In this document: in pieces, positions 14,706-64,000 of the stretch | How positions within the stretch are numbered: the stretch's first letter is position 1 | How the letters are laid out: every line of letters begins with the position of its first letter | DNA from: Raillietiella orientalis | Taxonomy: Eukaryota | Direction: 5' to 3' | DNA length: 64,000 nt | Assembly: GCA_036172245.1 (NCBI GenBank) | Contig: JAYWIR010000019.1 | Span: 620,001 to 684,000 of the forward strand | Position numbers and translations under genes: made by a program | Notes under the pieces: model-generated | The model's input: only the letters and a program-made list of their open reading frames with translations | Told to the model about the DNA's origin: nothing | Databases searched by the model: none

Positions 14706-15564
14706 GGCATGACAACGAGAAATGAACCACACCGTTTCCCTGGAAACGGGGAAGGCAGAGACTCCCTCGCATGTTGCTGCAGGGAACCTCTGAGGTCTTC
14801 CGCGCTGCTCTTTCCCGGGAGGTCGCGGCGCGTGGTGAGGTGTCCTCGGCACCTCCATGGCTCTTCACCCTCCTCGACGCGTCTCCTCAGGGAACAGTGG
14901 TGGGGGTCTTGCGAGAGGCCGCTCGTGAGACTTTGTGGGGGGTCTCCTGCGGGACACGGGGGTGGCGCTCTGTCGATGCCATTGCGGCCAGCCCTCCCTC
15001 TCCTGCTGCTCGCGCCCCCTTCCCAAGTTGCCTAAAAATAGCCGCCAACGCGACGTCCCCCGGCTTGAGACGTCCCCCTCCTCCAGCGAGGAAAGGCGCC
15101 GCCTCCAAGGTCGCGGGCGGCGGTTTCCGGGAGGGCGCCTCGCGGTGCACCCGATCGCACGCGCAGCGGCACTCCTTCTAGGGCTGTCCCTGCCCCTCCC
15201 TCCTTCGAGCAAGTGGGTGGGAAAGGCCTCCGCCTACCGGTGATGGGGGAAGGCGAAGGCGCCCCCCCGCCGGCGGTTCGTCGGACGACGTCCGTTCGGC
15301 ATCGCTGGAGTGGCGGACGGCCCGCCGGCGTGCCCTCCGTGTGCGCCGAAGCGAGGAGGAGGGGGCCGACCGCGCACGCGCACTTCCGGGGGGGGGGGGA
15401 GGGAGGGAGGCAGCGAACGACCTCTGAGGCCGAACATCGCCCGCCACGGGGCGCATCGCCGGACCCCGGCCGCGGTGGCCTGAAGTCCGCAGGGCAAAGG
15501 CGAACGCACCGAGCCATCGAGCGGAAGATAAGCGTGAAGAGCTCCTCCCTGCAGGCTTTCGTCG

Positions 15565-16135
15565 CCCCTCCTTCCCTTTCCTCCCCGCTTCTGTGCATGC
15601 TTTCTTCTTCCTCCTCCTTTTTTCGCTTTTCCTCCCTTTTTCTTCTCTTCCTCTTCCTCTCTTCGTTTTTCCTTCACCTTCCTCCCCCTTCCCTTTTTTT
15701 CCCACCCTTCACCCTCTCTTCCTCTTCCTCCTTTCCTTTTCCTCCCTTTTTCCTCCTACTCCTCTTCCTCTCCTCCTCCTCGTCCTTTTTGCTCCTCTTC
15801 TTCCTCATCCTCCCTTTTTCTTCCTCCCTTTTCTTTTTCCTCCCTTCATCCTGTCTTTCACTTCCTGCTCCTCCTCTTCCTCCTGTTTTTCTTTCTCCTC
15901 CCTTCCTTCTCCCTCTTCAACTTCTATTTTCCCTCCCTTTATCTTCTCTTTCACCTCTTCTTCCTCCTCCTCCCCCTCTTCCCTCCTCCTCTTGCCCCTC
16001 CTCCTATCCCTTTCTTGCTCATCTTGCTTTTCCTCCCGTTCCTCTTCCTCCTCTTCCTTTTTTTCCCCTCTTTGCTCCTTCCTCCTCTTCCTTCCTCCTC
16101 CTCCTCCTTCTTCCTGTGCTTCTTTCGCCCACTCC
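15565..16135. repeat. ~570-bp polypyrimidine (CCT/CTT)n tract
   Basis: Almost pure C/T on the + strand. Confidence 0.9.
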
Positions 16136-16567
16136 CTATCCTCTTCACCCGCACCCCTTTCCTTCGCTCGGCGCGGTGCCTGTTCGCTATCCTGTTGCCA
16201 GTCTCCCCGTACAGCTCCGATTTTCGCCGGAAGGGGGCGGCGCTGCTTCAGGATCGTCAGCGCTCCCCCTCAGAGAGGGCTGTCCCCCGAGGCAACTTAG
16301 GCAGTCTTCCGTCAGGACCTGCCGCGAGCGGGGCATAGCCCCTCCGTCTTCCCCTGCTGTCCCCTCGATTCATCACGAAACTTCCGTGCATGGGCGCGTG
16401 AGGTTCGCTGGTCCTCTTCTCTTCCCGCGGAGATGCAGGGGATGCTGGGCTGGACGTTGCGTGCGGGAAGTCGGGTGGAGGGGTCAGCTTGACTTCGAGG
16501 GTCAGCTCACCTCCCGGAAGATCCATCGCTGTTTGCATGCACCGGGATGTCCCGTAGGTGCCCCACG

Positions 16568-44900: not shown

Positions 44901-47900
44901 TTTTTAACTTGTTTGGGATCCTGGGAATACCGCAGACTGCTCGTGCATTTTTTTTTATAAGCGATCTTACCATGCGAACGAGGTGCTTTTCCAACGCATC
45001 GATTCTTTTTCGCAGTTGACCGAAGCGCGGAAGAAACAGGCAAAATTTGCCTTTGAGATGTTCATGCTCGTCATTTGCTCCATAGGACTCATCTCCATGC
45101 ACAAGCAGTATCAATCGGCACAGAATCCAAGGTTCTAAAATACTCAACGAGTATCGAATAGGGTGCGCCGACGCAATTTCTTGATCATTACATGGATTGC
45201 TACTTATTGCGTACGTGTTTATTACTGATTAGTGGATGTATAATTATCACTGTTCAAACGCTTAAGTTTAATTAGCAGGCACAGACTACAGTTTTTGCAG
45301 TTCGTCTTCAGTAATTATTCACACCATCCGTCTTTTACTAATTGCATTATCGATCTTGAAGTATCATCTTCACTCGTTACTCATTTTGCATAAATTTCAA
45401 AATCTCCTCGAAGATCTGCTGATTTTTTTTCTTTTCGAAAAGCGCACTGCAGTCTTGAAATTTGATTTCCAGGCTTCACTTTGTGTGATACAAAATATGC
45501 TGCATTTTGAGCGAATTTCTTTAAACACGAATTAGATACAAAAACTTGGATAAACTGTGTATCTTTACAATGATCTACATTTCCTGTTGTTCGGCGCACT
45601 GACTGTTGGTTTTTTTCTTTCTTTACTATCCCACCATTAGCTGTACGGTACCAATCATCAGTTTATGGAAATACAAGATAGTGAGCGTCTAAGTCCAGTC
45701 TCAACGGTTTGTTCCGGTTTTGTGGATCCAGACGGAGATCCAAAGTTGCTCTCGCATCAACTAGGAAGTAATATTTTGGATAGCAGTTTGCACGATTGCA
45801 GCTTCAAGGGACCAAGATCAGGCAGTTTCGAAGTATTTTCGAATGCATGTACATTACCACGGAACATGGAATGCCAACTGGATGCTTTGATTTACTATTC
45901 AAAGTGGCGATATTGTGAGAAAATATTTCAAAATAGCATTGGCCTGGAAAGGCAAAACAAATGGAAACAAGTTTTCACTTCAGATAGTTTAAATCATCCT
46001 GAAAATGATAGGGACTTTTTGCATTTTGGTGATTATAACTTCAAGATATCCTTCCCCACATCCAGAGTCGATAATAGAGATCGAATGATTTCAAGTTCAA
46101 GCCAACATCTGTTTAGATTGTGCACCGAATTCAAAAAAAATGCTTTTAAGTTGCAGAAATTGAATCGTCATGGTGTGGATCTGCACACGAAATTGCTTTC
46201 TAACAATTTATTTGAAAGAGTCAATTGCACTCACGATCATACGTTATTTGCATTGAGCGCAACTCATAAACCAAAGGTAAGTTTCTTTTTTTTTTTAATG
46301 TCCCTCAGCATCTTCATTCATTTGGTATTCAACTTTTCTTCTCTAAACAAAAGTATTCTGTGAATGGTTTGGCCATGACATTTGCAACCATTTCTCTACT
46401 AAATTTGCTTTTCTTTAGTACCATCTCCAATTTATATGATCTGTGACTTTATAAGCATGTGTTTTCAGGAATTTTCTATCTATAATGATAGTTGTTTCTA
46501 CACGTTTATCTGGAGAGACGCGGAAGCGCTATTTGGCTATGTGAAGTCTCAAAAAAACACTATCAGCAGCAGTGGAATATCATCGGAATCTTCACTGAAT
46601 GATCTAGAAAGTCATTCGCTGAATACTTACGCTGAAATGGATACTGAGTCTTCCATATCCGAAAAATTTCAGCCATTGTTCTCAGATAGTTCCTCCGACC
46701 TTCAGACCACCTCAGACGTAGAAGAGAAGTCCCAGTCCAGGATCGACAAAAATCTTGGAGATCGAGAGAAGTCAAAACATCCGGTGTTGCCCTCGATTCA
46801 GCACACATTTTATCCTGCAGATAACGGACACAACAACATATTTTTCATTAATCTGGGCGAAAGGAAATTGTATATGAAAGAATTCTCAAAGAAACTATGC
46901 AAGTCTACCCAATTCAGGGAACTCACTGTCGATGAAAAGTTGCGGTTGAGTGAGCTTCAGAATTTATGTGACAGTCTTATCGCATATGTTACCGCGTTGT
47001 TACCTACGCAGGATGAAGAACAATCGCATTTGTCTCGAACTTTCAGTTTGCAGTGTTATTGTGCCTTCATCAAGGATCTATATCTTGTCACAGAGTTGAA
47101 ACCCAGCGCGGTCTGGGACTCGACAGAAGGCTTGGTTTCTAGCGCCACCTATGAGAACATTAAAGAACCTTTCTTGAAACTATGCAGCATCTACTTGGAC
47201 ACTATAACCAAGTTGTTGCAAATATTTGGTAATTGGGAACTCCATGAAAATCACATACTAGAACATTATCACGAACTTGTTCACCATCTCAACACCTTGA
47301 GCATATTAGCTCAAAATTTTGTTTTTGCTTATGAATTAATGATTGTAGATTTACTATATCATTTAAACAATGTCAAATTTTATCTGATAATTTTGATTAC
47401 ATTAAACATCGTCGATATGTCACTTATTCAGAATCAGTTGATGGTCAGTTTTAAGAACTCTGTTATTATTAAGTCTTTTATTCATGTGAGCTGCAAGATT
47501 ATGATGGATTTCGAGATGCATTTATTTAGAGGAACCGTTCATTTATATGACATCAAAATAGTGGAAAATTTACTCAGGATAGCAACATGCATCACATCCC
47601 ATGTGCAGTTAATCAGCTCTAGTGAAATGGTGCATGACTCTTATTATGATGCACATGATATTTTCTTGCTCATGTATTTAAACAGGTGTTTCCATACTCA
47701 TATTGAAAATAGTGATTTGATAAATACAAAAAATATACAAACTCTGATGCAGCAGTTTGACTCGCTTTTGCAATCCATAAGTCTTTCCAGCTGGATGATA
47801 AATAACTGTGATCTCCAAGCATATATACAGCAGATTATAACTTTCCACTTGTGGATTTTGCCATGCTTGCATTATTTACACAATGTCCCAGCTGAAGCCT

Positions 47901-50900
47901 TCAGTGTATTGGGGAATGAATGCGTTATCCATGTCAGAAATATTCTGGATAATTTAAGCCACATTGTTGAAAATGTTGATGTTGCTGAGCAAATAATCAA
48001 AGAGAAGCACGGTCTTTTGGAAAGCTTTGAAAATACAGAAACTGAGAAAATCAGTGATGTGCTTGACCCCGTAAATGTTGCTGTATCGGATTTGCTTGCA
48101 TTATTACTTAACATTTCCAGACAACTTAGAGTTTTGTCAAGCATCCCTACCTTTAGCATTTCGGCAAACTATCTGTTGCTCCTGCAGAAAGCATTTTTAT
48201 ACAAAATCAAGTATGATACATTCATAACATCACTGAAGAGGGATCATGAATTTTTCAAATTGTCCTCAAACTATGTTTCTCATGCTTTTAAGCTGTGTAA
48301 TGCATCAAATGATATAAAAAATCTGATACCACTAACAGGACGCTTGTGCTATAAATCTGTGAAAACTCTGCTTTTCACTGAATATAAAATATGTGATAAT
48401 TATCTTTATTATCATCATGACAGAAACAGACTTGAACCTGAGAATGTTGCAGTTAACAGTGAGGTTATTGTTCAAAAATATATGCATATTTTGAAAAATC
48501 TGTGTAACAAAGAGCATTTATCCAATTCATTGGATGAATTCTTTTCTCAAGAAGCATTAAAGGATTTCAAAGTTTGTCTGAAGTTTATCTGTGACAGTTC
48601 CTACAATGTTCCAGGATGTCATTGGCCAATATCTGAACTTTGGGTATGCTGAGCATTCACAAAATCAGACAGTTTGATTTGTATGCATCTATTCCAGGAC
48701 ACAAAAGACAAATTTGAAAGGAGTCTGCGTGCGATTAACAGTTTTTGTAATTCCTGTGATCCCTCTCATGTTTCATATGAGTATTTTGATCTCCTGAAAA
48801 GTTACATTCACATTCTCAATAGTGGGAAATTTTTTCTTTGGATTGCAATTTTCAATTTCTCGTTGATGAACTGGGTGAACATTCATTATACAAAACTGCA
48901 AAAGCATGTGATGAAGTCAACACCTTCAACCCACATTCTAGATGAAGTTTCATCAACATTTGAATCTACTTTTAGTTCTTTAAGTAGCCTCATGGTATGT
49001 GTAATTTTTTTGTTTGGAAAACTGCTGACTCATTTATTCACAGGAATCCCATGCCCAAACTTCAGTTTTAAAAAGATTTTACCGACAATTACTATCTGTT
49101 CTAAGCAAATATGTTCAAAAAAGATTCTTAATTCAATTCATGTTTGAAAATCAGCAGTCGGATGCATCCTATTCTCCACAAGAAGATTTTAGTGCTTTAT
49201 TAAAAGAGAACATTCGTCTTGAAAATAGTGAATCTTCCATTAAGGACCACCTTGAAATCTGCAAACGGTTCCTGAAGGAATGCAAGAATTTCTCCAGAAT
49301 CATTGCCATTGAGGACAACATAGAAAGCATCTGCTATTGTAGCATCCAGATTCAGGTGATTTTAGTTTAAGCTTTTTTAATCAAGAGATGGTAATTTTTT
49401 CGTTTCAGCTTCTCTCTTCAAAGCTTCAGTATTCTGCATGGATTCTTGCTGATATTTCCAAGTTACTTGAATGCAAAACTTATTCAAGCTCAGTTTATGA
49501 TTCACTGAAATGCAGAACACATTATTTGTATAAACTACACGAAGAGATTAATAGCGTTTGGAATCATAATGAATATTTATTTGTATTTTTGTTGACCGAC
49601 GTATATAATATCTATCTAGAATATCACTTCATTATTAGAAATGCATTGGTTCTGGAGGAGCAGCTGGTAAACATCAAAGAAAAAACAGAATCTGGATTGG
49701 ATAATGTTTATGCAAAGATGAGTGTTGTGCAGGTATGCAAATTCATTTGCATCTTTTGTTTTGTAGGGATGAAGGTTACAAGAATAACTTTTATCTTCGA
49801 ATTTATGTTAAATACGACATCTTGTTCCAGGAATTGGGGAATATCGCAAAGAAGCAGTACTCCAGTATCGAAAAGTTGAAAATACGATTCTCTCATTTTG
49901 CATTTTTCGAAACTTTATCTAAATGGAATGAGAAATTGTTGTGGACAGAAGGAAAAATTAGAAGCTTATTATCATGTTTTGAAACAGAAGCAACTAGGCT
50001 TGGAGAGAGACTGGATCTTCATAAAGAACATAAATATATATCGAGTTACCTTTTGGATACCTTTGAAAGGGTGGAAATTATTTTGTCTTTAAATACTGCA
50101 TTTATAAATCCTGAACAGCTTGGCTTGCATCTTAAAAAACTCAAGGTAAATGACTGTGTGCTATTCTTTTTGATTAAAGTTCATTTAGGATCTTTATGAG
50201 TGTGTCTGTTGCTTGCAATCAGACTGTGATTATGTTATGGATCTCACAAAAGCATTGCATAGTTGTGATCTTGGTTTGCAATTTCGACAACAAGATTTGA
50301 AGCTTAGATTGGAAAATGCCATTGGAAAGTATTCCAATGATTTAACATCGTGGAAGTTCATTACAAAAATTATATCTGAAGAACACAATTGGCTGGTTCA
50401 AAAGCAGAATATGCTGATTTCCTTTCAAAGGCCTTTGTTGAAGTGGCATCAAAATTTCGATTTTTTGAAGGTAAGGGAATGATCAGTTTATATATTTAGA
50501 TAGTTGAGGGCTGAGGGCTTGGGACACTTAATTTAGTTTAGCATTTAATGAAAGCTTGTTGTGAAGAAATCGTTTGCAAATGTATTTTGTTTTAAGAGTC
50601 TGCTGATTTTTGAATATCATCTCTTGTTTACTTTTGTGTATGTTCGCTAATTGATTAACACTTGTTTCAGTGTTTGTTTTGATTACCTTTTATTCTCCCT
50701 TATGACATTTTGTTTTACTGAGTTGTTACCTTCATTGTTTGTTCATAAAACTTTAGCATAAATTTATTTCTCCACATTTAGAACTCATGTAAAGGTCCTG
50801 AATGAGAAGTTTAGCGATCTTTTTACAAGTTGATCCTTTTTTTTTTTTTTTCCGGTGTTCTTTCATATTTATATCTAGCGTATTTATTCATGCAAATGCA

Positions 50901-53900
50901 TCACAAGACTTGTGCATGACGTCCAGCTAAGAATTACATCTTTAGGAACTGACCCAGGAGCTCAGATCTAAAATGGAAAACATCAACACAATTCACATCT
51001 TGTTAACTGATTTGAAGGCGACAATTTGTGCAGATTCTTTCTCATGCATACAGAATCAGCTTAATATTTTCAAGAACATAATGAGAGACATGCAGAAGTA
51101 TGCTTCCATCATTTTGGGGATTTCAGAAAATCAAACAGAGCATAAATCACATTTGCTTGAAACTTTTAATTGCCTTGAAGCAATGTTTCTCAAATTAAAG
51201 GTTACTAAAAATTGATCTTAACTGGGTGGACTAATAATGGAAATTATTTTGCCGTATAGCATTCTGCATCCACAGGAAAGAAACCAAGTATTGAAGAGTT
51301 GCAGCATGTCTTCATGGAGACTTACATTTGCCATTTAAAAATTAAAGCCTGTTTTCATGATCCTTTTTACTCCTGTTTGCAGAAGCAACATAAAGAAGAA
51401 ATGGTGCAGACATTTTTGGTGAGTTCATATTCTGTTGTTCAAGTACGTTTTTTTGAAGAATGTTCGAATTCTTCAAAAAATTTGGCTTTCAGGTTTTGGT
51501 AGTTCATCCTTTTTGCATTTTCTCACATGTTGAAATTCAGATCACAAGATTTTTTTTTATAGAGGGAAAAATGGATTTGCTAGCCTCCATGTATCAATAG
51601 AATTTGAATTTTGAATTTTTAAAGTATTGTTGTCGAACTAAAAATAGCGTTTCTAATATGTAAATCATGAGTTTGTAAGGTGATGTTATATTTCAAAATA
51701 TTTTCACAGAACAATTAAATATAAATTAATAAATGAATATGAAAAATATATGAATATATTCATATGTTTATTTTTCCATAATTAGTCCATTGCTTGCAAT
51801 TATTAACTAGCTATGGTAATATGCATGTATTAAATCTGTATTCGATGTTTTGAATATGGTTGGTGAAAAACCGTATGTATTCTTATTTAAAAGGGCGTAG
51901 TTTTATAATTGGTGAGTTTTGGTTTCTTTAATTGGTGAGCAGTAGCCACAGTAATCATAAGTGCAGAATTCCAGAAAATTTGGTTGCAAAATTTTGATGG
52001 CAAACATCAAAAAAAGGTAATCGGGTAAAATGTAAATCGCGTTGTTGAAATGCAATGTTCAGTGTTATACCTTTAAAAAAGACTAGTTTCCATATCAAGT
52101 TCCAGAAACATATTTGTTTTGCTATTCTATGTAACTTGAACATCGAAATCAAAGCAAAGCACTTCTCAGGAAGTCATTAAGTTAGGAAAGTATTTAACCT
52201 AGTACCTCTTGCTTTTCTAGGATTGCTATTATTTTTTGGAGAGTCTCAGAACAGAATATGTTGATGCATTAACATTCCGTGCTCGCCTTCCTGATTGCAC
52301 AGAAATCATAAAGATCCTAGATCACATTGAACAAACTGACATTAGGGATCCAAAGGTGCTGGAAACAACTGTCCAGCAGCTAGAGGTAAATTTCATTTTT
52401 AATTGGTAATACTTTTTCATGCATTTTCAAGTATTTCCTATTGTAATGACTATCAGATCATGATCTACATCAGATTCATTTACAGGTATGCTCCAGTCTA
52501 CTTTCTATCTATGAAGCTTCCTTTTTGAAACCCAATACGCAAATTTTACAAGATAGCAACATATATCATCAGCTTAGAGATATAGCTGCAAAACAGAATT
52601 CCTTTCATGTTAAGTCCGAATTATGGAAAGAATATCAATTTAAAGGGAAGGTTTTAAGATCCGATCTTTTGCATCTTGAAGGTGAAAATAATAGGCTGTG
52701 TCTTCTTTCTTTCGGCAATCAAGATATGAAAACAGCAGTCTCGTCAGTTTCGGTAATGTTAGCTAACAAGAATCTGTTTTTGCATTTATAAATTAAGCGT
52801 TAGGTTTTTATTGTTCATCATTTTCAGTACCAAAAATATCATTTATGTAGATACGCTCGATGAATTTATTATACTTCATGGCAAATATGATTGTTTTGAT
52901 ATTTGTAGAAATTAATTCAAGAAGCATCACTTTTGAGGAAAGAACTTGATGACTTGCACCATCTGGCCTCATTGTTGTTCTCTGATTTTGGGCATGAAAC
53001 TCAAGTGCAAATGAATACTGATCTTATAAATCTGGATCACATATTAACTAACATAACAGCAAGCATGCAAACCTGGAAAGATTACTTGCAAAGAACAGAT
53101 ACTTTGCAAGCTGAATTTATTTCTGTGTATATAGATTTGTCCGAAAAATTTAAGGCGATGCAATGTATTCTTGACAATGAATTTGAATCAAATGGCAAGT
53201 GGACTGCTCATTCAGAAGCAGAATATCAGGTTGTACCTTGCAATTCTAGAATTTTTTTCAATAATCCGGGTTCTATAGGTGATGATGGCTGAATTGCAAG
53301 ACATTCAGCCATCAATAAAACACGTGAAACTACTTGGAGATGAGCTTTTGCATAGATTATGTCTCAAAGACCCCGGATTGTTGAAAAATCGCAGCACACA
53401 ACTAGAGGAAATGTATCTTTATCTTCAGCAGAGTTTGGAAGTTCGACTTTGCCTTTTGTCAGAAAAGAAGTGTTTGTATCAGGACTTCGAAAATCAGTAA
53501 GAGTGCACTTCTTTATTGGTTGCTCGACATAAACAATGCCTGTAGGTGTTCGTCCTTGCTGTTGAAACTGGAGAATGCACAGCACCAGTTGTCGAGTGCT
53601 CCGACGTGTGATTCAATGCACATATCCGATCTCTTGTCTCAAACGTATTCAGCTGCAGCAAGTGATTGGAAACTGGATTTTGATCATATAGATGTTCTCG
53701 CAGAGAGGTTGAGAATGTACAGCACTGCTGAAGAAACTCGAACAGTTGATGGGTTATGTGGTAAATTGACATACGTTTGGAATAGCATCAGTCTGACTTG
53801 TAAAGCAAAACTTGCAACAGATGAAGCTATGCTACATGTGAGTGTTGGTAATAGTTATCTACTATTTGTATATTTTGATACAGGATGAATCGGCAAACAA

Positions 53901-56900
53901 TCTCTACCTATTGCTGGATTGGTTGGAAGATCAGGAAGCATTATTACCAGCAATCTTAGTTTATGAACCACAAATGTACACCATTGAGAACAAAGAAAAG
54001 ATATGCAAGGTTGGTAATGTTGATGACTACAACTGTTCGTTTCTTAATTGTTTTTGAACAGGAGCTGCTACAAAAGTGTGATTTCAATTTGCAAACTTTG
54101 GAATTGTATGAAAAGATTGCATTAGAAAATGATCTCCATGCTAATAGTATTGCAAAACACAATGTTCCCATTGTGAATGTTCTTAAAGAAGTCATGCTCA
54201 GGTACAATTCCAAAGTTCGTCAGACAAGTCGTTTTTTATTTGTGATTGCTAGGTACAATCAAGTCAGGGCAGCCTTACAGTTGCAGCTACATAATATAAT
54301 GCAGTTAACAAATAATTGGCAAGACTATTGCCAGTTAGAGCATGAGTTAGTCTCTTTGTTCGATGAGATTGACGCCATCTGCCGATGTGCACATACTGAA
54401 GCCAGTGTGCATCCGTACTGTGAGCTATACAAAGAATTATTACACTTTGAGGTAAGGAGTATGAATATTCCAGTGTCTGCACTTGTTGTTATTTGTTGTT
54501 ATAGGAACTGTCTAGAAAAATGTACAATTCTCTACCAGTAATAAACAGACTGAAGAGCATTTTGCCGCTTTACTGCGAGTTCCCTCCAATCCCGCCCACG
54601 GAATCTCCTCAAGAGCATCTAAATGTTATCTGCAAGCGTTGGCAAGCAACATCAGCCAGAATACATGCTGTGCTTCGTCGCTTGCAGTTTAGCGAACATT
54701 TAGAGGCGTCTTTCCGCCGACTGCTGGAAATCAACACTGTAGAATTGACTCGGTTAGAAGCACGTTTGGGTGCTTGGGAGCAAAGTTTGGTGAAGAAAAA
54801 AACTTGCCAGTTGGATCAGGTATTTAACAGAGTGAAGGAACCGTCTGTTTATCCGGCACTCCTAGGATCTCCCACGGGAATTTCATTTGCTGCGGGACCA
54901 TGTGGTCCGCTTCCTTCAATTGCGTGACTACTTGATTCTGAGGAGCTGTCCAAGTGATGCTGAGCAGTTCTTTGAAAGAGGGCAGAGAGTAATCCGTTTT
55001 TTCAATGAGCTGTGCACTCGGTTTCTGGCAAGTCCGCTTTTGCCGTGTGAACCGGTAAGCACACCTCCATGTAATCAACCCCTCGAATGAACGGCATGCG
55101 TGAATGCTCGCCTCCGTAAAGTGTTCATGCTCAATTATCCCGTTTCGAATGTTCCAGACTTCCGAAATCGACCTCGTACCCATCGTGTCCAGCATTCATT
55201 CAGTTTCCGGCCTGCTGTGGTTACTCCCTCTTGTAGAAACAAAGGACATGTACGCACATCTTTCAGAGGTAAGACACTTTTCTCCGCAAACAGCTGCTGC
55301 AACGTGCCGATTTCACATTAGGATTTAACAGTAGTCGATGGCAATTTATCGAAAGATACCCGTTTACGTGTTGGATCCACGCTCCCCGAAGAATCGTCGG
55401 AGGAGGCAACTTGCATCTCAGACGTGCCTCTGTTTAACGAACATGAAAAACAGAAGGTGCTTGGACCACCTGACAGTGAGGATGCAAATACTTTGGAAGC
55501 CTTCACCAACCGGCATGAAAATCAAGAATTACGCAAGCAGAGGTCAGCTCTAGAAGGAAATTTTACAAGCAAATTACAGGAAAGGAAAACTGAGCTCCCC
55601 AGTAGTTTCTGGTTCCAAAGAGTATTGCAAGAAATCCCCAAATCTAAAAATTTGAGATTTGGGAACGCTCCTTCGTACAGGAGCAATCTGAACTACTCTT
55701 GGGGCTCCTCCACATCAGAAAAAGAAAATGGCGTTATAGAACCCTCTGCAGAAAACTCCATGCCATGTGCTAGGACTGAAGAAGAAGCAAAACACCTTGC
55801 TGTCCCAGACACAAATGTCATTCATTCATTCAAGTTTGGGAATGAGCAAAAAGAATTGAAACCAGCTTCAAGCACCTTGGACGAATCCAGCAACTATGTA
55901 TCGCCCGCACTCGACGTCGTGATTTCAAAAGAGAGCGCATCAGAACCAAAGCAACTCAAAAAACGAAAGCAACAGCACAGATGGAAGAAGAAACGTAATC
56001 CAAAATCTGACGAGCAGATTGGGGCTACAGAATCCGGAATCCAATATAAGGTTGCAGAAGACAGACATGATTCTGCCTTCACTTTGGGTTCAGCTTATCA
56101 GCAGTTTCAAATCAACTTGCAAAAGCTGAACGATGAGATCCAGCAAATCTCACGAAACTTGAATCATGAGGTAGTCCATTCCAACTTATTGCACAAATCC
56201 AAATGGCAAACCAATATGGAAAAACCCATATATCAAGAGACTCATTATTCGCCTTACCAAATCAAAACTGTGATGTCGTCAGAACAGCAAACGAGAAGTC
56301 AGATGGACAAATTAAGACCTATAAAAACCGCGCAAGAGAGTACAAGTGACAATTTTTTCGTCCGACCATGCAAACCACAAGTTACAATGCAAAAAAATAC
56401 ACAGTTGCAATTCTCCGTTCCTTATGAAATAGAAGACCATGATATGAACCTCCCTAGTCGGGACAAACTCGTGAAACCTCAACAGAACTCTGATCATTCA
56501 CCAGATCATCCAGAAAAAGTGCCGAATACAAGTGAACAACAAGTACACGACACCCGCCATACCTACGAAGATAATCATGTCGACACCAATACAGTTCAAA
56601 ATATATGCAGACAGTTATCAGAAACACCACTCGAAGCGAACTCCCTGCAAACACATCACAGCAAGAGGAAACAGCCTTCAAGCATCCGCCTCTCGAAACC
56701 AACGAGCAACATAGTTGCAGATACAGAAGAAAGCAAAGAAAAGTCAGCCAGTGCTCCAGAACAAACAAGTCGTAATGTAGAAAGCAAATTTCCATCACCG
56801 CTAAGGGATGAAAATCAAGAAAAATACATAAACCAGTGGTTCTCAGAAGAACTGCAAAAATTCCAAATTTTATTTTCAAACCAAAACGACCAAGAGCCAC

Positions 56901-59900
56901 GAGTGGACGTGCTTCTCCATCAAATCAGCGTCGAAACCTCAAATATCCTCATCGATTTAAACAAAGCAGACATTTCAACAACAATTACAAATACTCTGCT
57001 TACTGATTCAGCGAACCTTTCGACCGGGTACAACTCAGAAGCACACGATCATAACACTGAAAGAATTCAAAGCATAAATAAGTCGCTTCCACGTAAACAC
57101 ATATCAGCACCCAGTAGAGCAACATGGTACTCACACGAAACACAGAAACTACAAATACTAGTTACACCACAAACCCAAAATACATTTATATGCCCTCGGC
57201 AACAAACTTCTACAAGTAACTCCTCAATTAATGAAGAGCAGCATCCCGATCTGCCGTTAATAGACACATTCGAAAGAATTGAAAGCATTGACATCTCGCG
57301 TAGATGTTCATTTGACGGCAACCAACAAACACAACAAACCCAACACTCTCATACATCCGATTGGATACAACAGACTCACACTGCGATCCACAACACAATG
57401 ATCACATCAACAAACAGGCACACAATACCAGACCCGAATTACGATCGCAAAGATCAAAACAAAACATTCACAGACGAACAACAGAACACAGATAAGCACA
57501 TCGGAATTCCTCAACTTCATAGCACACGAAAACATACTACACAACAAATCACAAAACCTCAATCCTACGACAAAATCAACTCCACACACGCAACCCAGCA
57601 AATCTCCAAAACACCGTCGGTCAAACAAACCACAACCAACAAAACCGAACAAGGACAACCAACAAAATACAAGCGAACTGATGAAACACCAACGAAACTA
57701 ACAACTGCAACACCAAACAAATATATCGAAACATCAAACCGAACAACTAACACTGCTCAGCCTAACCAAAACAACAACGGAAATTCAAAACGATTACAAA
57801 AAAAAGCATCTCAAATACAAAAAAAGGACAGAAACACACAGGCACCGATCACGCAACCATCACAAAAAACCGACAAACACACCCAATCAACAAACAACGC
57901 CAACATAAACACAAAAATCGACCACCACAAAACCTACAGAATAAACACAAAAATTCACACATTACACAACAAAACCATACAAACAACCAAAATAAAAACC
58001 AGAATCAAAGACTCACCAATTAACGACAAAATACCAAAAGATACTGTAATCTCACAGACAGAACTCAAACACAACAAACGAACAAACATACCCGAAAACG
58101 TCATTACGGAAGAGCCAGCTGCTGCGACTTCTGCGGAAGAAGTAGCTGAGGAGAAGCCCGCGGCGCCGGTGGAATCCGCTGTGGAGCCGGCTACGGCGGC
58201 TACAAGAGGCGTGGAAGTGTCGGCGCCGGAGCTCCCTGCAAGGAGATCCGCTGTGGAGCGCGGAGCCACCGTTCCGGCGACGCTGTCGTTTGCCGAGCCG
58301 GAGGAGGACGTGTACCTGGACGAGGNNNNNNNNNNNNNNNNNNNNNNNNNNNNNNNNNNNNNNNNNNNNNNNNNNNNNNNNNNNNNNNNNNNNNNNNNNN
58401 NNNNNNNNNNNNNNNNNNNNNNNNGTGTCTGCTGGTGTCGTCGCGGAAGCGGAGTCCGTGGAAGAGCATGCGGATGCGAAGAAGGAAGCGGCGCCATTTC
58501 CCGCGGAAGAAGCGCCTGCTGAGGAAGATTCGTTTCCGGCGGTTGGTCCCGAGGAAGCTGCGCGTCCCGGCGGGCTGTCTTCCCTGGCCGGCCTGCTGTC
58601 TCGCGGCGTGCGGGGCTTGATCTCGCTGTCCGAGGGGCAGAAGGTGCCGGCACGTGGTGCTGCTTCGGAGGAGGTTTCCGTGGTGGCGGCGGGACGGGAA
58701 GACGGTGCCCGTGCCGCGGTGGCGGCCGTAAGGACGGTGGAAGACGCGACGTGGCTCCCGGAAGGCGTCGTTGCGGAAGCGCCTGTCGCTGCGGCTCCTG
58801 CGGAAGACGTGGCTGAGGAGAAGCCCGCGGCGCCGGTGGATTCCGTTGTGGAGCCGGCTACGGCGGCTGCAAGAGGCGTGGAAGTGTCGGCGCCGGAGCT
58901 CCCTGCAAGGAGATCTGCTGTGGAGCGCGGAGCCTCCGTTCCGGCGACGGTGTCGTTTGCCGAGCCGGAGGAGGACGTGTACCTGGACGAGGTGTCTGCG
59001 GTTGCGTCGGCTGTGTGGAGCGGCAGGCTGCGCGCGTCGGAGGAGCCGGCCGCGGGGCGTCGCGCTGGCGTGTTCGCCGGTGAGGTCGCCTCCGAGGAGG
59101 AGGTTCCCCTTCGCGAGCTGCTGGCCGAGGAGGAGTCGTCGGCCGCGTCCCTTGGAAGAGACTTTTTCCCTGATCGACCGGTGGAGGTGGGAGGTGCCCT
59201 GCCTTCTGCTGCTGTGCTGGCGTACGATCCCTGTGCGCACGCTGTGTTGTCCGTCGAAGCGTCCGGAAAGGAGACTGTGTGGAGTGGCGTTCCGGCGCCG
59301 ACGGTGGTACCGCAAGCATTGGGAGCGGCGCCGTGTCCCGGCGAAGACTACTTTGGAAGGACGTACCGCGTGGACGAGTATTTGGTCCGCGTCGAACCGG
59401 ATGTGTCTCTGGTGCCGCTCGGGGAGGCGGCTCCACCTGGAAGCGCTCCCTGCGAATTCGTGGACGCAGTGGCTGCTGACCGCGGCGCTGTGCTTCCCGC
59501 TGCGTCGCCGGTGTCGGCCGCAGCGGTTCCCCGTGAGCCCGTGGCTCCCGAAGAGGAAGGAGAGGTGTGTGGAGTTGCGGAGCTGGCGGAGGAGGTGCCG
59601 CGTTCGCCGGCTGCTCCCGATGTCCGTGTGCGCAGAGGTGTGGCGCGGAAGACCAGGGAGCGTGTCGCCGTTTCACCTGCTTCGGATGCGCCTGCCGAGG
59701 GGCTGCCCGTGTGGTTAGCGGGCGAGAAGATGGAGGAGAAGGAAAGCGGCGTGCTGACAAGGGACCGCAAGCTGCAGTCCGCGGAGATTGCCTACGCGCG
59801 GGCCATGCAGGCTCACAGGAAGGTTGTTGCTCCGGACCGTGCGGCCAGAAGCGTGGTTGTTTCTTCTGCCGTGCTCGCCGCCCCGGTGGACGCGGCGCCT

Positions 59901-62900
59901 TCGCCGCCGAAAACGGAAGCTGAATCCGTTCCTGGAGACGTGTGGCGTGAGCCTTCGTCGTCCGAGGAACGTTGGCCCCCTCCGGCGGATGCTGCGCGGA
60001 AGGTTGCGCTGTCAGCTGAGGAGCCGGAGGCCGCTCTTTCGCTCCCGACCGCCGAAGAGAAGAGGGACGTGCTTGTCCCGTCGTCGCTGGTGTGCGACGC
60101 TGCGCGGGAACGCTCTGGTCCGGAGTCGTTTGCGCCCGCTGCCGACGAGGAAGGCGTTTCGCGGGCACCGCCTGCTGCGGACGTGCTCGGGGCGGTGGTG
60201 TCTGCTGGTGTCGTCGCGGAAGCGGAGTCCGTGGAAGAGCATGCGGATGCGAAGAAGGAAGCGGCGCCATTTCCCGCGGAAGAAGCGCCTGCTGAGGAAG
60301 ATTCGTTTCCGGCGGTTGGTCCCGAGGAAGCTGCGCGTCCCGGCGGGCTGTCTTCCCTGGCCGGCCTGCTGTCTCGCGGCGTGCGGGGCTTGATCTCGCT
60401 GTCCGAGGGGCAGAAGGTGCCGGCACGTGGTGCTGCTTCGGAGGAGGTTTCCGTGGTGGCGGCGGGACGGGAAGACGGTGCCCGTGCCGCGGTGGCGGCC
60501 GTAAGGACGGTGGAAGACGCGACGTGGCTCCCGGAAGGCGTCGTTGCGGAAGCGCCTGTCGCTGCGGCTCCTGCGGAAGACGTGGCTGAGGAGAAGCCCG
60601 CGGCGCCGGTGGATTCCGTTGTGGAGCCGGCTACGGCGGCTGCAAGAGGCGTGGAAGTGTCGGCGCCGGAGCTCCCTGCAAGGAGATCTGCTGTGGAGCG
60701 CGGAGCCTCCGTTCCGGCGACGGTGTCGTTTGCCGAGCCGGAGGAGGACGTGTACCTGGACGAGGTGTCTGCGGTTGCGTCGGCTGTGTGGAGCGGCAGG
60801 CTGCGCGCGTCGGAGGAGCCGGCCGCGGGGCGTCGCGCTGGCGTGTTCGCCGGTGAGGTCGCCTCCGAGGAGGAGGTTCCCCTTCGCGAGCTGCTGGCCG
60901 AGGAGGAGTCGTCGGCCGCGTCCCTTGGAAGAGACTTTTTCCCTGATCGACCGGTGGAGGTGGGAGGTGCCCTGCCTTCTGCTGCTGTGCTGGCGTACGA
61001 TCCCTGTGCGCACGCTGTGTTGTCCGTCGAAGCGTCCGGAAAGGAGACTGTGTGGAGTGGCGTTCCGGCGCCGACGGTGGTACCGCAAGCATTGGGAGCG
61101 GCGCCGTGTCCCGGCGAAGACTACTTTGGAAGGACGTACCGCGTGGACGAGTATTTGGTCCGCGTCGAACCTGTGTCTCTGGTGCCGCTCGGGGAGGCGG
61201 CTCCACCTGGAAGCGCTCCCTGCGAATTCGTGGACGCAGTGGCTGCTGACCGCGGCGCTGTGCTTCCCGCTGCGTCGCCGGTGTCGGCCGCAGCGGTTCC
61301 CCGTGAGCCCGTGGCTCCCGAAGAGGAAGGAGAGGTGTGTGGAGTTGCGGAGCTGGCGGAGGAGGTGCCGCGTTCGCCGGCTGCTCCCGATGTCCGTGTG
61401 CGCAGAGGTGTGGCGCGGAAGACCAGGGAGCGTGTCGCCGTTTCACCTGCTTCGGATGCGCCTGCCGAGGGGCTGCCCGTGTGGTTAGCGGGCGAGAAGA
61501 TGGAGGAGAAGGAAAGCGGCGTGCTGACAAGGGACCGCAAGCTGCAGTCCGCGGAGATTGCCTACGCGCGGGCCATGCAGGCTCACAGGAAGGTTGTTGC
61601 TCCGGACCGTGCGGCCAGAAGCGTGGTTGTTTCTTCTGCCGTGCTCGCGCCGCCCGGTGGACGCGGCGCGCTTCCGCGCCGAAAACGGAAGCTGAATCCG
61701 TCCTGGAGACGTGTGGCGTGAGCCTTCGTCATCCGAGGAGCGTTGGCCCCCTCCGGCGGATGCTGCGCGGAAGGTTGCTGTCAGCTGAGGGCGGAGGCCG
61801 CTCTTTCGCTCCCGACATGAAGAGAAGAGGGTCGTGCTTGTCCCGTCGTCGCTGGTGTGCGACGCTGCGCGGGAACGCTCTGGTCCGGAGTCGTTTGCGC
61901 CCGCTGCCGACGAGGAAGGCGTTTCGCGGGCACCGCCTGCTGCGGACGTGCTCGGGGCGGTGGTGTCTGCTGGTGTCGTCGCGGAAGCGGAGTCCGTGGA
62001 AGAGCATGCGGATGCGAAGAAGGAAGCGGCGCCATTTCCCGCGGAAGAAGCGCCTGCTGAGGAAGATTCGTTTCCGGCGGTTGGTCCCGAGGAAGCTGCG
62101 CGTCCCGGCGGGCTGTCTTCCCTGGCCGGCCTGCTGTCTCGCGGCGTGCGGGGCTTGATCTCGCTGTCCGAGGGGCAGAAGGTGCCGGCACGTGGTGCTG
62201 CTTCGGAGGAGGTTTCCGTGGTGGCGGCGGGACGGGAAGACGGTGCCCGTGCCGCGGTGGCGGCCGTAAGGACGGTGGAAGACGCGACGTGGCTCCCGGA
62301 AGGCGTCGTTGCGGAAGCGCCTGTCGCTGCGGCTCCTGCGGAAGACGTGGCTGAGGAGAAGCCCGCGGCGCCGGGGGATTCCGTTGTGGAGCCGGCTACG
62401 GCGGCTGCAAGAGGCGTGGAAGTGTCGGCGCCGGAGCTCCCTGCAAGGAGATCTGCTGTGGAGCGCGGAGCCTCCGTTCCGGCGACGGGGTCGTTTGCCG
62501 AGCCGGAGGAGGACGTGTACCTGGACGAGGTGTCTGCGGTTGCGTCGGCTGTGTGGGCGGCAGGCTGCGCGCGTCCGGAGGAGCCAGCCGCGGGGCGTCG
62601 CGCTGGCGTAACCGCCGGTGAGGTCGCCTCCGAGGAGGAGTTTCCCCTTGCGAGCTGGCCGAGTCGTCGGCCGCGTCCCTTGGAAGAGACTTTTTCCCTG
62701 ATCGACCGGTGGAGGTGGGAGGTGCCCTGCCTTCTGCTGCTGTGCTGGCGTACGATCCCTGTGCGCACGCTGGGTTGTCCGTCGAAGCGTCCGGAAAGGA
62801 GACTGTGTGGAGTGGCGTTCCGGCGCCGACGGTGGTACCGCAAGCATTGGGAGCGGCGCCGTGTCCCGGCGAAGACTACTTTGGAAGGACGTACCGCGTG

Positions 62901-64000
62901 GACGAGTATTTGGTCCGCGTCGAACCGGATGTGTCTCTGGTGCCGCTCGGGGAGGCGGCTCCACCTGGAAGCGCTCCCTGCGAATTCGTGGACGCAGTGG
63001 CTGCTGACCGCGGCGCTGTGCTTCCCGCTGCGTCGCCGGTGTCGGCCGCAGCGGTTCCCCGTGAGCCCGTGGCTCCCGAAGAGGAAGGAGAGGTGTGTGG
63101 AGTTGCGGAGCTGGCGGAGGAGGTGCCGCGTTCGCCGGCTGCTCCCGATGTCCGTGTGCGCAGAGGTGTGGCGCGGAAGACCAGGGCGCGTGTCGCCGTT
63201 TCACCCTTCGGACCGCCTGCCAGGGGCTGCCCGTGTGGTTAGCAGGCGAGAAGATGGAGGGGAAAGGAAAGCGGCGTGCTGACAAGGGACCGCAAGCTGC
63301 AGTCCGCGGAGAGTGCCTACGCGCGGGCCATGCAGGCTCACAGGAAGGTTGTTGCTCCGGACCGTGCGGCCAGAAGCGTGGTTGTTTCTTCTGCCGTGCT
63401 CGCCGCCCCGGTGGACGCGGCGCCTTCGCCGCCGAAAACGGAAGCTGAATCCGTTCCTGGAGACGTGTGGCGTGAGCCTTCGTCGTCCGAGGAACGTTGG
63501 CCCCCTCCGGCGGATGCTGCGCGGAAGGTTGCGCTGTCAGCTGAGGAGCCGGAGGCCGCTCTTTCGCTCCCGACCGCCGAAGAGAAGAGGGACGTGCTTG
63601 TCCCGTCGTCGCTGGTGTGCGACGCTGCGCGGGAACGCTCTGGTCCGGAGTCGTTTGCGCCCGCTGCCGACGAGGAAGGCGTTTCGCGGGCACCGCCTGC
63701 TGCGGACGTGCTCGGGGCGGTGGTGTCTGCTGGTGTCGTCGCGGAAGCGGAGTCCGTGGAAGAGCATGCGGATGCGAAGAAGGACGCGGCGCCATTTCCC
63801 GCGGAAGAAGCGCCTGCTGAGGAAGATTCGTTTCCGGCGGTTGGTCCCGAGGAAGCTGCGCGTCCCGGCGGGCTGTCTTCCCTGGCGGCCCTGCTGTCTC
63901 GCGGCGTGCGGGGCGCTGCGAGTCGCTTTATCCGAGGGCGCGACTTCCGCTGCTGTCGCCGCCGCTATCGCCTGCTTCGGAGAGTTTCCTCGCCTCTGCG
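16568..64000 (+). CDS. SYNE1-like: Giant spliced spectrin-superfamily gene, nesprin/Msp300/ANC-1-like (CH1 + spectrin-like rod + giant repeat exon); 3' end beyond the window
   Basis: CH1 is encoded by 62/96/87/93-nt exons. Nineteen frame-consistent GT-AG exons run from 45641 to 55268. Late rod peptides 'RWQATSARIHAVLRRLQF..F..LL....VELT' and 'LILRSCPSDAEQ' echo nesprin C-terminal repeats ('..RVTSILRRLKHF..EEF..' and 'LIEKSEPLDAA' as I recall them). Joining the CH exons to the rod exons across ~20 kb is inferred. Confidence 0.7.
16828..16889 (+). CDS. CH1 exon 1: (G)NQEEIHKAIYRDWLNQILGR
   Basis: ttcccAG acceptor and GTGAGT donor; 62 nt, phase 1 to 0. Aligns to 'EQExVQKxTFTKWxNxxL' of the nesprin/dystrophin actin-binding domain. 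Confidence 0.85.
18430..19035. repeat. (AAC/AAG)n compound trinucleotide microsatellite, intronic
   Basis: Long aacaag/aagaac/cagcag runs. Confidence 0.9.
23242..23415. repeat. Diverged ~99-bp tandem duplication, two copies
   Basis: TTTTATTGTTGC..GTTGACGGTGGTTGCTAAGCGC...GAACAATGGTTAC starts at 23242 and again at 23341. Confidence 0.85.
24471..24566 (+). CDS. CH1 exon 2: YGSSLVIQDLIEDLSDGDRLLMVLQELTQERI
   Basis: ctctttgtAG acceptor and GTAAGC donor; 96 nt, phase 0. Contains the 'DLxEDLxDGxxLL' CH motif. Confidence 0.93.
24947..25033 (+). CDS. CH1 exon 3: AGDDSKLPATKVRKLSRVHAALQFIKERQ
   Basis: cctttcAG acceptor and GTAGGT donor; 87 nt, phase 0. Contains the 'VxxALxF' CH motif. Confidence 0.92.
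25184..25276 (+). CDS. CH1 exon 4: ICLVNINPCDVVGGNAHVILGLVWKIILHFQ
   Basis: ccttccAG acceptor and GTACCT donor; 93 nt, phase 0. Matches the 'LVNIxxxDIVDGNxxxxLGLIWxIILHFQ' signature. Confidence 0.95.
26365..26600. repeat. Pyrimidine-rich (CCT/CTT)n tract
   Basis: Mostly C/T on the + strand. Confidence 0.8.
45641..46276 (+). CDS. Rod-region exon (LYGTNHQFMEIQD...THKPK)
   Basis: Polypyrimidine tract plus TAG acceptor, GTAAGT donor; 636 nt open frame in AT-rich DNA. Confidence 0.8.
46469..48643 (+). CDS. Large rod-region exon (EFSIYND...ISELW), helical and divergent
   Basis: gttttcAG acceptor and GTATGC donor; 2175 nt open frame in AT-rich DNA. Confidence 0.9.
48698..48994 (+). CDS. Rod exon (DTKDKF...SSLM)
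   Basis: ttccAG / GTATGT; 297 nt, phase 0; 54-nt upstream intron. Confidence 0.85.
49044..49355 (+). CDS. Rod exon (ESHAQT...IQIQ)
   Basis: cacAG / GTGATT; 312 nt, phase 0; 49-nt upstream intron. Confidence 0.85.
49409..49732 (+). CDS. Rod exon (LLSSKL...SVVQ)
   Basis: tttcAG / GTATGC; 324 nt, phase 0. Confidence 0.85.
49831..50145 (+). CDS. Rod exon, spectrin-repeat-like (ELGNIA...LSKWNEKL...KKLK)
   Basis: ttccAG / GTAAAT; 315 nt, phase 0. Confidence 0.85.
50189..50470 (+). CDS. Rod exon (DLYECV...HNWLVQK...DFLK)
   Basis: tttAG / GTAAGG; 282 nt, phase 0; 43-nt upstream intron. Confidence 0.85.
50946..51200 (+). CDS. Rod exon (ELTQEL...LKLK)
   Basis: ctttAG / GTTACT; 255 nt, phase 0. Confidence 0.8.
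51260..51418 (+). CDS. Rod exon (HSASTG...QTFL)
   Basis: tatAG / GTGAGT; 159 nt, phase 0. Confidence 0.75.
52221..52385 (+). CDS. Rod exon (DCYYFLESL...QQLE); absent from the ORF track
   Basis: cttttctAG / GTAAAT; 165 nt open frame, phase 0. Confidence 0.8.
52486..52752 (+). CDS. Rod exon (VCSSLL...SELWKEYQ...SSVS)
   Basis: tttacAG / GTAATG; 267 nt, phase 0. Confidence 0.82.
52909..53229 (+). CDS. Spectrin-repeat-like exon (KLIQEA...AEYQ)
   Basis: ttgtAG / GTTGTA; 321 nt, phase 0; heptad helical pattern. Confidence 0.85.
53279..53496 (+). CDS. Spectrin-repeat-like exon (VMMAELQDIQPSIKHVKLLGDELL...)
   Basis: ctatAG / GTAAGA; phase 0 to 2. 'VxxxGxEL' is a typical spectrin helix-B pattern. 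Confidence 0.88.
53546..53837 (+). CDS. Spectrin-repeat-like exon (CSSLLLKLE...LTYVWNSI...AMLH)
   Basis: ctgtAG / GTGAGT; phase 2 to 0, matching the previous donor. Confidence 0.88.
53884..54009 (+). CDS. Spectrin-repeat-like exon (DESANNLYLLLDWLEDQEALL...KICK)
   Basis: tacAG / GTTGGT; 126 nt. 'LLDWLEDQE' is a typical spectrin helix-A motif. Confidence 0.9.
54062..54451 (+). CDS. Spectrin-repeat-like exon (ELLQKC...WQDYCQLEHEL...LHFE)
   Basis: aacAG / GTAAGG; 390 nt, phase 0. Confidence 0.85.
54505..54819 (+). CDS. Nesprin-like C-terminal spectrin repeat exon (ELSRKM...KRWQATSARIHAVLRRL...QLDQ)
   Basis: tatAG / GTATTT; 315 nt, phase 0. Confidence 0.88.
54866..55054 (+). CDS. Nesprin-like repeat exon (DLPREF...LILRSCPSDAEQF...PCEP)
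   Basis: cctAG / GTAAGC; 189 nt, phase 0. Confidence 0.85.
55122..55268 (+). CDS. Probable exon (CSCSII...HLSE); acceptor uncertain
   Basis: Strong GTAAGA donor, weak AAG acceptor; phase 0. Confidence 0.55.
55322..64000 (+). CDS. Giant exon: ~920 codons of S/T/Q/K/N/E-rich low complexity, then the 591-codon tandem repeat array
   Basis: cattAG acceptor in frame with ORF 55424. Open to the gap at 58325, then open again from 58425 to ~61647. Later frame breaks coincide with copy-private indel patches. Confidence 0.75.
58090..63915 (+). repeat. Coding tandem repeat, unit 1,773 bp (591 aa), near-identical copies
   Basis: GTGTCTGCTGGTGTCGTCGCGGAAGCG recurs at 58425, 60198, 61963 and 63723 (spacings 1773, 1765, 1760). 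A diverged partial copy lies at ~58090-58325. Confidence 0.97.
58326..58424. other. Assembly gap (99 N) inside the repeat array
   Basis: N run. The two flanks come from different positions in the repeat unit. Confidence 0.99.

Follow-up and report, generated by a model that had tools for sequence, protein, structure and literature searches.

Homogenized, lineage-specific repeats within nesprin-type proteins are already known from ANC-1 and from the Drosophila isoforms Msp300-PE and Msp300-PG. The DNA analyzed here is a window of 64,000 nucleotides from Raillietiella orientalis (GenBank assembly GCA_036172245.1, contig JAYWIR010000019.1, positions 620,001-684,000, forward strand; contig C19 of a 210-Mb assembly of 491 contigs). 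It contains a gene assigned from its sequence to the nesprin/Msp300 type, with a tandem array of 1,773-bp units; the unit and its position are its own. Among the best 120 of 3645 listed matches, a plastin exon of this genome is closest to insects and other arthropods, uniformly at 65-70% identity, as would suit a divergent ecdysozoan without a close relative in the collection searched. Coordinates above 64000 are extended coordinates, equal to the G000:C19 position minus 620000 and to the L007 position plus 63000.

ANC-1 of C. elegans contains six repeats of 903 residues, almost identical in DNA and predicted to be helical, and a reduced repeat number impairs nuclear anchorage (PMC8139857). 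ANC-1, a giant CH-to-KASH protein, resembles the present gene in its KASH end and its very long, near-identical units, the ANC-1 array lying a few hundred residues from the membrane; ANC-1 units are predicted to be helical and replace the spectrin rod, whereas the unit found here is acidic, of low complexity and located between spectrin-like repeats. In Msp300-PE, there are two acidic repeat types restricted to Drosophila, 101 and 108 residues long, with about 20 copies each and predicted to be beta-sandwich-like; together with Msp300-PG, which shares exons with it and has spectrin repeats and KASH, this isoform organizes a perinuclear microtubule-organizing center (PMC11230431). The resemblance consists of lineage-restricted, acidic, highly similar tandem repeats within a nesprin; the fly units occur in CH-less isoforms from another promoter, whereas the unit described here has 591 residues and no internal repeats. 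A parallel with ANC-1 and Msp300 had been drawn in an earlier description of the window, made by a model from the letters alone (the sequence-only reading), and is apt. Its attribution of a PEVK-like giant exon to Msp300 has no counterpart in the accessible text of PMC11230431, where the term PEVK has 0 occurrences.

In vertebrate nesprin-1, spectrin repeats SR69-71 are followed by an unstructured region and by SR72-74 (PMC3646009), and the vertebrate adaptive domain carries the kinesin-binding LEWD motif (PMC10317153, PMC12581424). The C-terminal module of nesprin-1/2 has the same order of parts, and the KASH peptide found here can be aligned with that of nesprin-1. Vertebrates have a short linker of high conservation, in contrast to a linker of at least 3,500 residues here, which is fast-changing and lacks the W-acidic motif in the modelled segments. 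Judged by architecture, the array appears to fill the linker between two spectrin-like blocks, where vertebrate nesprins have the unstructured adaptive domain.

Titin/sallimus-type genes have giant repeat exons, a Glu-rich low-complexity product and near-identical internal arrays. An example is the titin-like gene of the same genome, spanning G000:C5:2851561-2865723 and 2866986-2880566 (L106-L109), with giant open frames of 4,721 and 4,527 codons and arrays of 183 bp x 9.6 (95% identical) and 312 bp x 6.6 (99%). The locus shares with this type the giant exon, the low-complexity product and the near-identical array. Unlike it, the unit is Lys-poor (2.2%) and much longer, and the titin-like arrays have no skewed flanks. 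Searches of the open-access literature listed no report of this array, of a macro-repeat in a nesprin adaptive domain or of a mirror skew around a coding array.

Gene structure and layout of the array

The gene is rather probably organized as a CH1 domain, a diverged rod, a giant linker exon with a translated, near-identical array, two or three spectrin-like repeats and a transmembrane-KASH end. Its parts are as follows.

24471-24566, 24947-25033 and 25184-25276, plus strand: three predicted exons of a CH1-type (actin-binding-domain type) domain, found with an own-genome CH profile
45641-52788, plus strand: AT-rich exons of a diverged, probably helical rod; besides shorter open frames, there are two of 240 and 749 codons
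52909-55268, plus strand: nine predicted exons, 637 residues, with spectrin-like repeats upstream of the giant exon; all GT-AG, spliced model stop-free
55322-58090, plus strand: 5' unique part of the giant exon, 923 residues, polar, predicted disordered, with A/C-richness rising toward the array
55476-55481, plus strand: possible alternative phase-1 donor, which would skip the array in frame (motif scan, phase table)
58091-58325, plus strand: edge copy, diverged (92% identity), covering unit positions 334-568 and in frame with 55322
58326-58424, no strand: assembly gap of 99 N inside the array
58425-60197, plus strand: copy 1, 1,773 bp, 591 residues, open, 68% GC
60198-61962, plus strand: copy 2, 1,765 bp, 8 frameshifting indels as assembled
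61963-63722, plus strand: copy 3, 1,760 bp, 7 frameshifting indels as assembled
63723 to extended 64714, past the window end, plus strand: partial copy 4 (unit positions 1-989), by sequence match
extended 64715-64830, plus strand: unique sequence at the 3' end of the giant exon, which continues the unit's frame for 38 codons to a consensus phase-1 donor at 64830
extended 65094-67121, plus strand: seven predicted exons (GT-AG, stop-free) that complete the linker and continue with spectrin-like repeats, two of them clear and one probable
extended 67234-67475, plus strand: last exon, encoding a transmembrane helix and a KASH peptide that terminates in PPPQ-stop (PF10541, E 4.1e-15, 56.2 bits, cut-off 23)

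Copies of the unit are arranged head-to-tail, starting at 58425, 60198, 61963 and 63723. As assembled, copies 2 and 3 are 98-99% identical to copy 1 and partial copy 4 is 91% identical, that is, near-identical in DNA, as in ANC-1-type repeats. No internal repeat was found inside the unit, and the array is CpG-rich (observed/expected CpG 1.17). The gap is the sole run of N within the 543 kb examined and, provided that the array is continuous, must conceal at least unit positions 569-1773. With the same proviso, the array would comprise at least 7,748 bp, or 4.37 units and about 2,580 residues, and the giant exon at least 10,633 bp.

The nesprin-like character of the gene, proposed in the sequence-only reading, was borne out by the KASH domain found downstream, which is the best of 21 PF10541 matches in the genome; the best matches of its peptide in the PDB are nesprin-1 KASH peptides, to which it can be aligned. 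Downstream of the array, eight GT-AG exons form a stop-free chain of 657 residues through KASH. The KASH exon and an alignment of two KASH sequences, used as queries, returned no homologs. A second clear KASH gene of the genome, which we take to be klarsicht-like, is located at C19:2820188-2820340 (L016) and ends in PPV; upstream of it, at about 2806350-2807800, a short stretch is repeated at 1,265-bp spacing.

Spectrin-like repeats were detected with a profile built from 40 repeats of the same genome, with 50 shuffles as control. The spliced downstream part scored 20.0 bits versus 1.2 for the best shuffle, and the nine upstream exons scored 13.8 versus 4.5; the 591-residue unit gave no match. 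The array had been placed downstream of the last recognizable spectrin repeats; in fact, more repeats follow it, then KASH, and the best-scoring modelled repeat is among them. The Pfam family Spectrin matched one downstream exon weakly (E 0.011), and no Pfam match to these repeats was above cut-off; therefore, they are strongly diverged. Exons 45641-52788 of the rod likewise matched no Pfam family above cut-off, and no homologs were found among 1.84 billion proteins when the spectrin exons, together with an in-frame intron, served as query. Neighbors of the downstream piece in the ESM Atlas include clusters of nesprin-1, nesprin-3 and Msp300 at 0.91, with two bacterial clusters ranking ahead of them (0.92-0.93); the families PF25034/PF25035 are carried by Atlas neighbors. 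A single-sequence model of the downstream part (mean predicted local distance difference test score, pLDDT, 56) contains a three-helix bundle aligning to 1aj3 over 97 residues (Z 10.5, root-mean-square deviation 2.6), and Foldseek gave no match to the model at E <= 0.001. Exon 54505-54819 was folded as long helices (mean pLDDT 66).

The CH1 domain scored 40.3 bits with a profile from eight CH pieces of the same genome, versus 3.6 for the best of 100 shuffles, and its best PDB matches were alpha-actinin, MACF1, plectin and dystrophin (E 2.5e-5 to 4.5e-4); Pfam CH gave E 0.05-0.08 for each piece. It is the probable 5' end of the same gene and is likely to be linked to the rod exons over a 20-kb interval. 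A genome-wide CH search had suggested that the gene has no CH domain, a reading that was overturned, as introns had hidden CH1 from that search. A gene with CH and spectrin domains on C7, tried as a detached N-terminus, was rejected; it reads as dystrophin-like, a label that is our assumption. The sequence-only reading overlooked this domain, as well as the gap, the frameshifts and the flank skew described below.

Several segments of spectrin genes occur twice or three times in the genome with like scores, namely, C23:905532-907555 versus C267:5503-7526 and C23:916835-918856, and C1:6223919-6225867 versus 6290038-6291987; these may be partial duplications or unmerged haplotypes. The gene is also divided into sharp GC domains, with about 55-65% GC in the CH exons and 3' exons and 31-40% in the rod exons, the array standing at the boundary (window 28000-58000 compared with 1-28000 and with 58000 onward).

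Reading frame, specificity and composition of the unit

The giant exon is preceded by a GT-AG intron in phase 0 (55269-55321). Starting at 55322, an open frame of 1001 codons reaches into the edge copy 58091-58325. In the 923-codon 5' part, the other two frames hold 32 and 46 stops, and shuffles of its three thirds were stop-free in 0, 0 and 1 of 2000 cases; FoldIndex is negative in 95% of its windows. Since this part has been kept open in comparison with shuffles, permanent splicing-out at 55476 would be hard to explain. At the other end, the segment 64715-64830 shows G 0.58 at first and T 0.63 at third codon positions. Both edges of the array meet unique sequence in the unit's own frame, by entry from 55322 and by exit to the phase-1 donor, and the giant exon, entered in phase 0 and left in phase 1, cannot drop out alone in frame.

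Copy 1 is open for 591 codons, while the remaining five frames hold 4, 9, 3, 3 and 1 stops; none of 2000 base shuffles was stop-free (mean 13.5 stops), and the unit shows codon structure, with G 0.58 at first positions. Splicing and translation through the array are predicted. Frames as large as this would require are found open elsewhere in the genome, in the titin-like gene. The claim that the array is in frame with the exon starting at 55322 holds for the edge copy and was not confirmed for the full copies; continuity of the frame is demonstrated only as far as the edge copy because of the gap.

Compared with copy 1, copies 2, 3 and partial 4 carry 7, 13 and 36 substitutions and 9, 9 and 29 indels, respectively. 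Apart from 1 shared variant, each is confined to one copy; the affected 200-bp patches differ from copy to copy, and 30 of the 47 indels are deletions. A short-read contig of run X1 is identical to copy 1 at 59785-60120 (336 bp, 0 differences), where copy 2 has 14 differences. Because the differences are private, patchy and mostly deletions, and because X1 agrees with copy 1, it is probable that every copy is open as copy 1 is and that the frameshifts stem from unpolished long-read errors. The X1 run covered 7 of 30 bins, mostly by chance pieces of 18-35 letters, the 336-bp array piece being the sole real match; that X1 covers the array and misses the single-copy flanks would fit a high copy number and proves nothing.

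The DNA search with the unit gave 6 matches, five of them at the locus and one a 185-bp, 82% identical fragment on C3; all 8 matches of the protein search were at the locus (2 and 37 candidates scored, respectively, the counts being lower bounds). The unit is not a dispersed element; a match to a dispersed transposon or satellite elsewhere, named in the sequence-only reading as a refuting outcome, was not seen apart from this fragment. The fragment (G000:C3:1730462-1730646, L014 462-646) has lost the frame and is situated some 200 bp away from one end of a dispersed repeat; it may have arisen by retroposition or capture. Pieces related to the dispersed repeat adjoining it are present at 1641-2150 of the window and are presumably the end of a non-LTR (long terminal repeat) element.

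Since the array starts at unit position 334 and ends at 989, it most likely grew from an older 656-bp direct repeat by unequal exchange between the two copies. The edge copy differs by 19 substitutions (8% divergence), 10 of which lie in its outermost 39 bp; a diverged edge with alike inner copies is the pattern expected of ongoing homogenization failing at the border. The 92% edge copy and the 82% orphan fragment show that the unit has a greater age than one would judge from how alike the inner copies are.

The unit consists of A 20.5, V 13.2, E 12.9, P 10.3 and K 2.2%, with a net charge of -47. In the PEVK region of titin, P, E, V and K make up about 70%. The unit, with P+E+V+K at 38.6%, does not have a PEVK composition. 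Aromatic and I/L/M residues constitute 10%, and because they are so few, disorder of the unit is likely; its TOP-IDP mean of 0.226 is higher than in the other segments. A more basic, helix-like stretch is seen in the translation at about residues 430-475. No homologs of the unit were found in Pfam, the ESM Atlas or the PDB, the two large protein searches having used other queries. No Rfam match was found in 54000-64000, and no comparable A/C-rich protein stretch was found elsewhere.

Proposed function and competing explanations

According to the favored structure, the linker, which is the short adaptive domain in vertebrates, would have been turned into one exon of at least 10.6 kb. Unequal exchange or gene conversion may keep the copies of its tandem array (at least 7.75 kb, 4.4 units) near-identical. 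The gene would then encode a KASH-anchored protein whose rod is set apart from the last spectrin-like repeats by at least 3,500 residues, first polar, then acidic and of low complexity. Such a compliant segment close to the nuclear membrane would lengthen and soften the tether and may offer repeated binding sites. The contour length of a unit is roughly 210-225 nm when stretched and about 10 nm as a coil (standard polymer estimates), so each copy would add slack more than stiff length; the array would presumably serve as a spacer. If this is true, the gene encodes the third independent giant KASH protein lengthened by a homogenized lineage-specific array, with a unit five times the fly's in length and of another kind than the worm's. 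An array in a linker conserved in vertebrates suggests that selection there can act on the length and compliance of the tether instead of its sequence, and a single-locus array with a countable unit offers a natural way to test whether nuclear anchorage depends on nesprin length. Automated annotation would truncate such a gene at the gap and at the frameshifts.

A number of observations weigh against this structure. Across the gap, the offset is 1 modulo 3 as written, and the frame from 55322 stops at 58520; 41 of the 47 indels are frameshifting, and the frame of copy 1 meets its first stop at 61719 as assembled, so that of the array noted earlier the 1,773-bp head-to-tail arrangement and the open copy 1 stand, while copies 2-4 carry frameshifts. 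Two shorter arrays in the titin-like gene were assembled with their frames open. Routes that skip the array in frame exist, from the 55476 donor to 65094 or from 55268 to 65524, and every unit holds several donor-like sites; an internal donor skipping the array, named in advance as evidence against its being coding, is to this extent present in the phase-1 donor-like site at 55476. The edge copy has a ratio of replacement to silent divergence (dN/dS) of about 1 (5/63 silent, 14/171 replacement sites) and thus gives no sign of selection on the amino acids of the unit. FoldIndex is negative in just 13% of unit windows and positive overall, so that it does not call disorder; for the disordered spacer proposed earlier, the low content of aromatic and I/L/M residues speaks in favor and FoldIndex against. 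With respect to gene identity, no CH2 was found between CH1 and the rod with a two-sequence profile, exon-wise searches of the genome with the SYNE1-specific Pfam models PF25034 and PF25035, in which 1 and 2 candidates were scored, gave no match at the locus, a W-acidic (LEWD-type) motif is absent from four modelled segments in a scan that depends on predicted junctions, and the fold match to 1aj3 is tied with unrelated bundles and lies below the decisive level for helical bundles.

Functional alternatives share one gene structure, and their confidences overlap with that of the favored explanation. It is possible, though on balance improbable, that the array is translated but merely tolerated, a nearly neutral expansion of a low-constraint linker in which selection acts on the open frame only and length is untuned. 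A dN/dS of about 1 suits a spacer of unimportant sequence and equally such an expansion; the comparison is, however, a single one of 234 bp under strong mutation bias and has little power. The adjoining exon is skewed in base composition equally at its three codon positions, a point in favor of neutral expansion; against it, the T bias of the exit segment is largely at third positions. The absence of a detected homolog of the unit and the dispensability of 277 residues between repeats and membrane in C. elegans (PMC8139857) are in line with neutral expansion; repeat-bearing ANC-1 and Msp300 isoforms, on the contrary, show phenotypes (PMC8139857, PMC11230431).

The unit is unlikely to be mainly a repeated binding scaffold for microtubule-organizing or motor proteins, as proposed for Msp300-PE, instead of an elastic spacer. 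Acidic repeats are present in Msp300-PE/PG, isoforms that organize the perinuclear microtubule-organizing center (PMC11230431), the array is located in the linker to which kinesin and BicD2 are recruited in vertebrates (PMC12581424), and the basic, helix-like stretch near residues 430-475 could be read in the same way. However, no motif, homolog or W-acidic motif was found, and constraint on amino acids was not seen.

A slightly more doubtful explanation takes the frameshifts as real: the long exon would then yield a truncated, KASH-less isoform or be degraded, and the anchored nesprin would be made by splicing that bypasses the array, with 55476 or 55268 as the donor side. The predominance of frameshifting indels, the in-frame skip routes and the openness of the shorter titin-like arrays accord with it, and KASH-less nesprin isoforms are known (PMC11230431). 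Against this, the private, clustered and deletion-biased differences fit read errors, run X1 agrees with copy 1, and the exit from the array keeps the frame of the unit and leads to a donor of matching phase.

It is very improbable that the unit is a non-coding, GC-rich piece of a satellite or transposon within an intron, with a frame open by chance: 68% GC lowers the frequency of stops, one opposite-strand frame holds just 1 stop and the 185-bp C3 piece lies close to a dispersed-repeat end, but no other copy was detected by DNA or protein search beyond that fragment, and the array is in frame at both edges, with strong codon structure and no terminal inverted repeat.

Mirror-image flank skew and neighboring features

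The two flanks of the array are skewed in base composition as mirror images.

56500-58090, or 55500-58090 in a wider reading, no strand: left skew gradient, G+T falling toward the array
extended 64715-66200, or 64715-65700 in a narrower reading, no strand: right skew gradient, G+T high and declining from the array

Successive 500-bp steps through the 3 kb that precede the left edge have G+T of 0.46, 0.42, 0.37, 0.35, 0.29 and 0.18; outward from the right edge, it is 0.79, 0.61, 0.56 and 0.47. Among 1086 windows over 543 kb (G+T mean 0.499, standard deviation 0.041), the lowest and the two highest flank the array. The left skew is equal at all three codon positions, and 17 of the 19 changes in the edge copy are toward A or C (expected share 0.53, P 0.0008). 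Right-flank introns have G+T of 0.83, 0.82 and 0.74 versus 0.39-0.68 in 12 other introns of the gene, with the exons muted; part of the right-flank bias is ordinary T-richness of introns. The skew looks like mutation pressure filtered by selection, and the gradient may preserve, over the long term, the trace of strand-specific mutation linked to a repeat array.

The polarity is G-to-A on the left and C-to-T on the right. By our own reasoning, a replication origin in the CpG-rich array, or divergent transcription from it, predicts the same polarity. In yeast meiosis, such polarity was assigned to break-induced replication, while resection of double-strand breaks gives the opposite one (PMC13438675). 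A speculative proposal, doubtful as a whole, is that the recombination homogenizing the array mutates its own exon: outward repair synthesis would leave the minus strand exposed to the left of the array and the plus strand to its right, which would produce the mirror gradient and would have rewritten about 500 nesprin codons to be rich in Thr, Lys, Asn, Gln and His, and copy number would then be a heritable dial of tether length at a motor-docking linker.

Mirror skew was absent from 3 of 3 other coding arrays in the genome, all of 2.1 kb or shorter, and is unsupported here as a general rule at coding arrays. Decayed unit copies were rejected as the origin of the left flank, with scores within those of shuffles; on the right, 23 of 56 positions match, which is not significant, as 53 of 591 in-frame offsets score as high. 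Terminal inverted repeats were also rejected (46 of 60 shuffles scored equally high).

Same-strand neighbors downstream of the gene, at extended 72300-76400 and 87324-87554 (L007-L009), are an annexin gene and an Mss4 gene (Pfam above cut-off). Degenerate CT-rich and AAC/AAG-rich simple-repeat tracts are present in the window at 15538-16335, 18545-18858 and 26487-26596.

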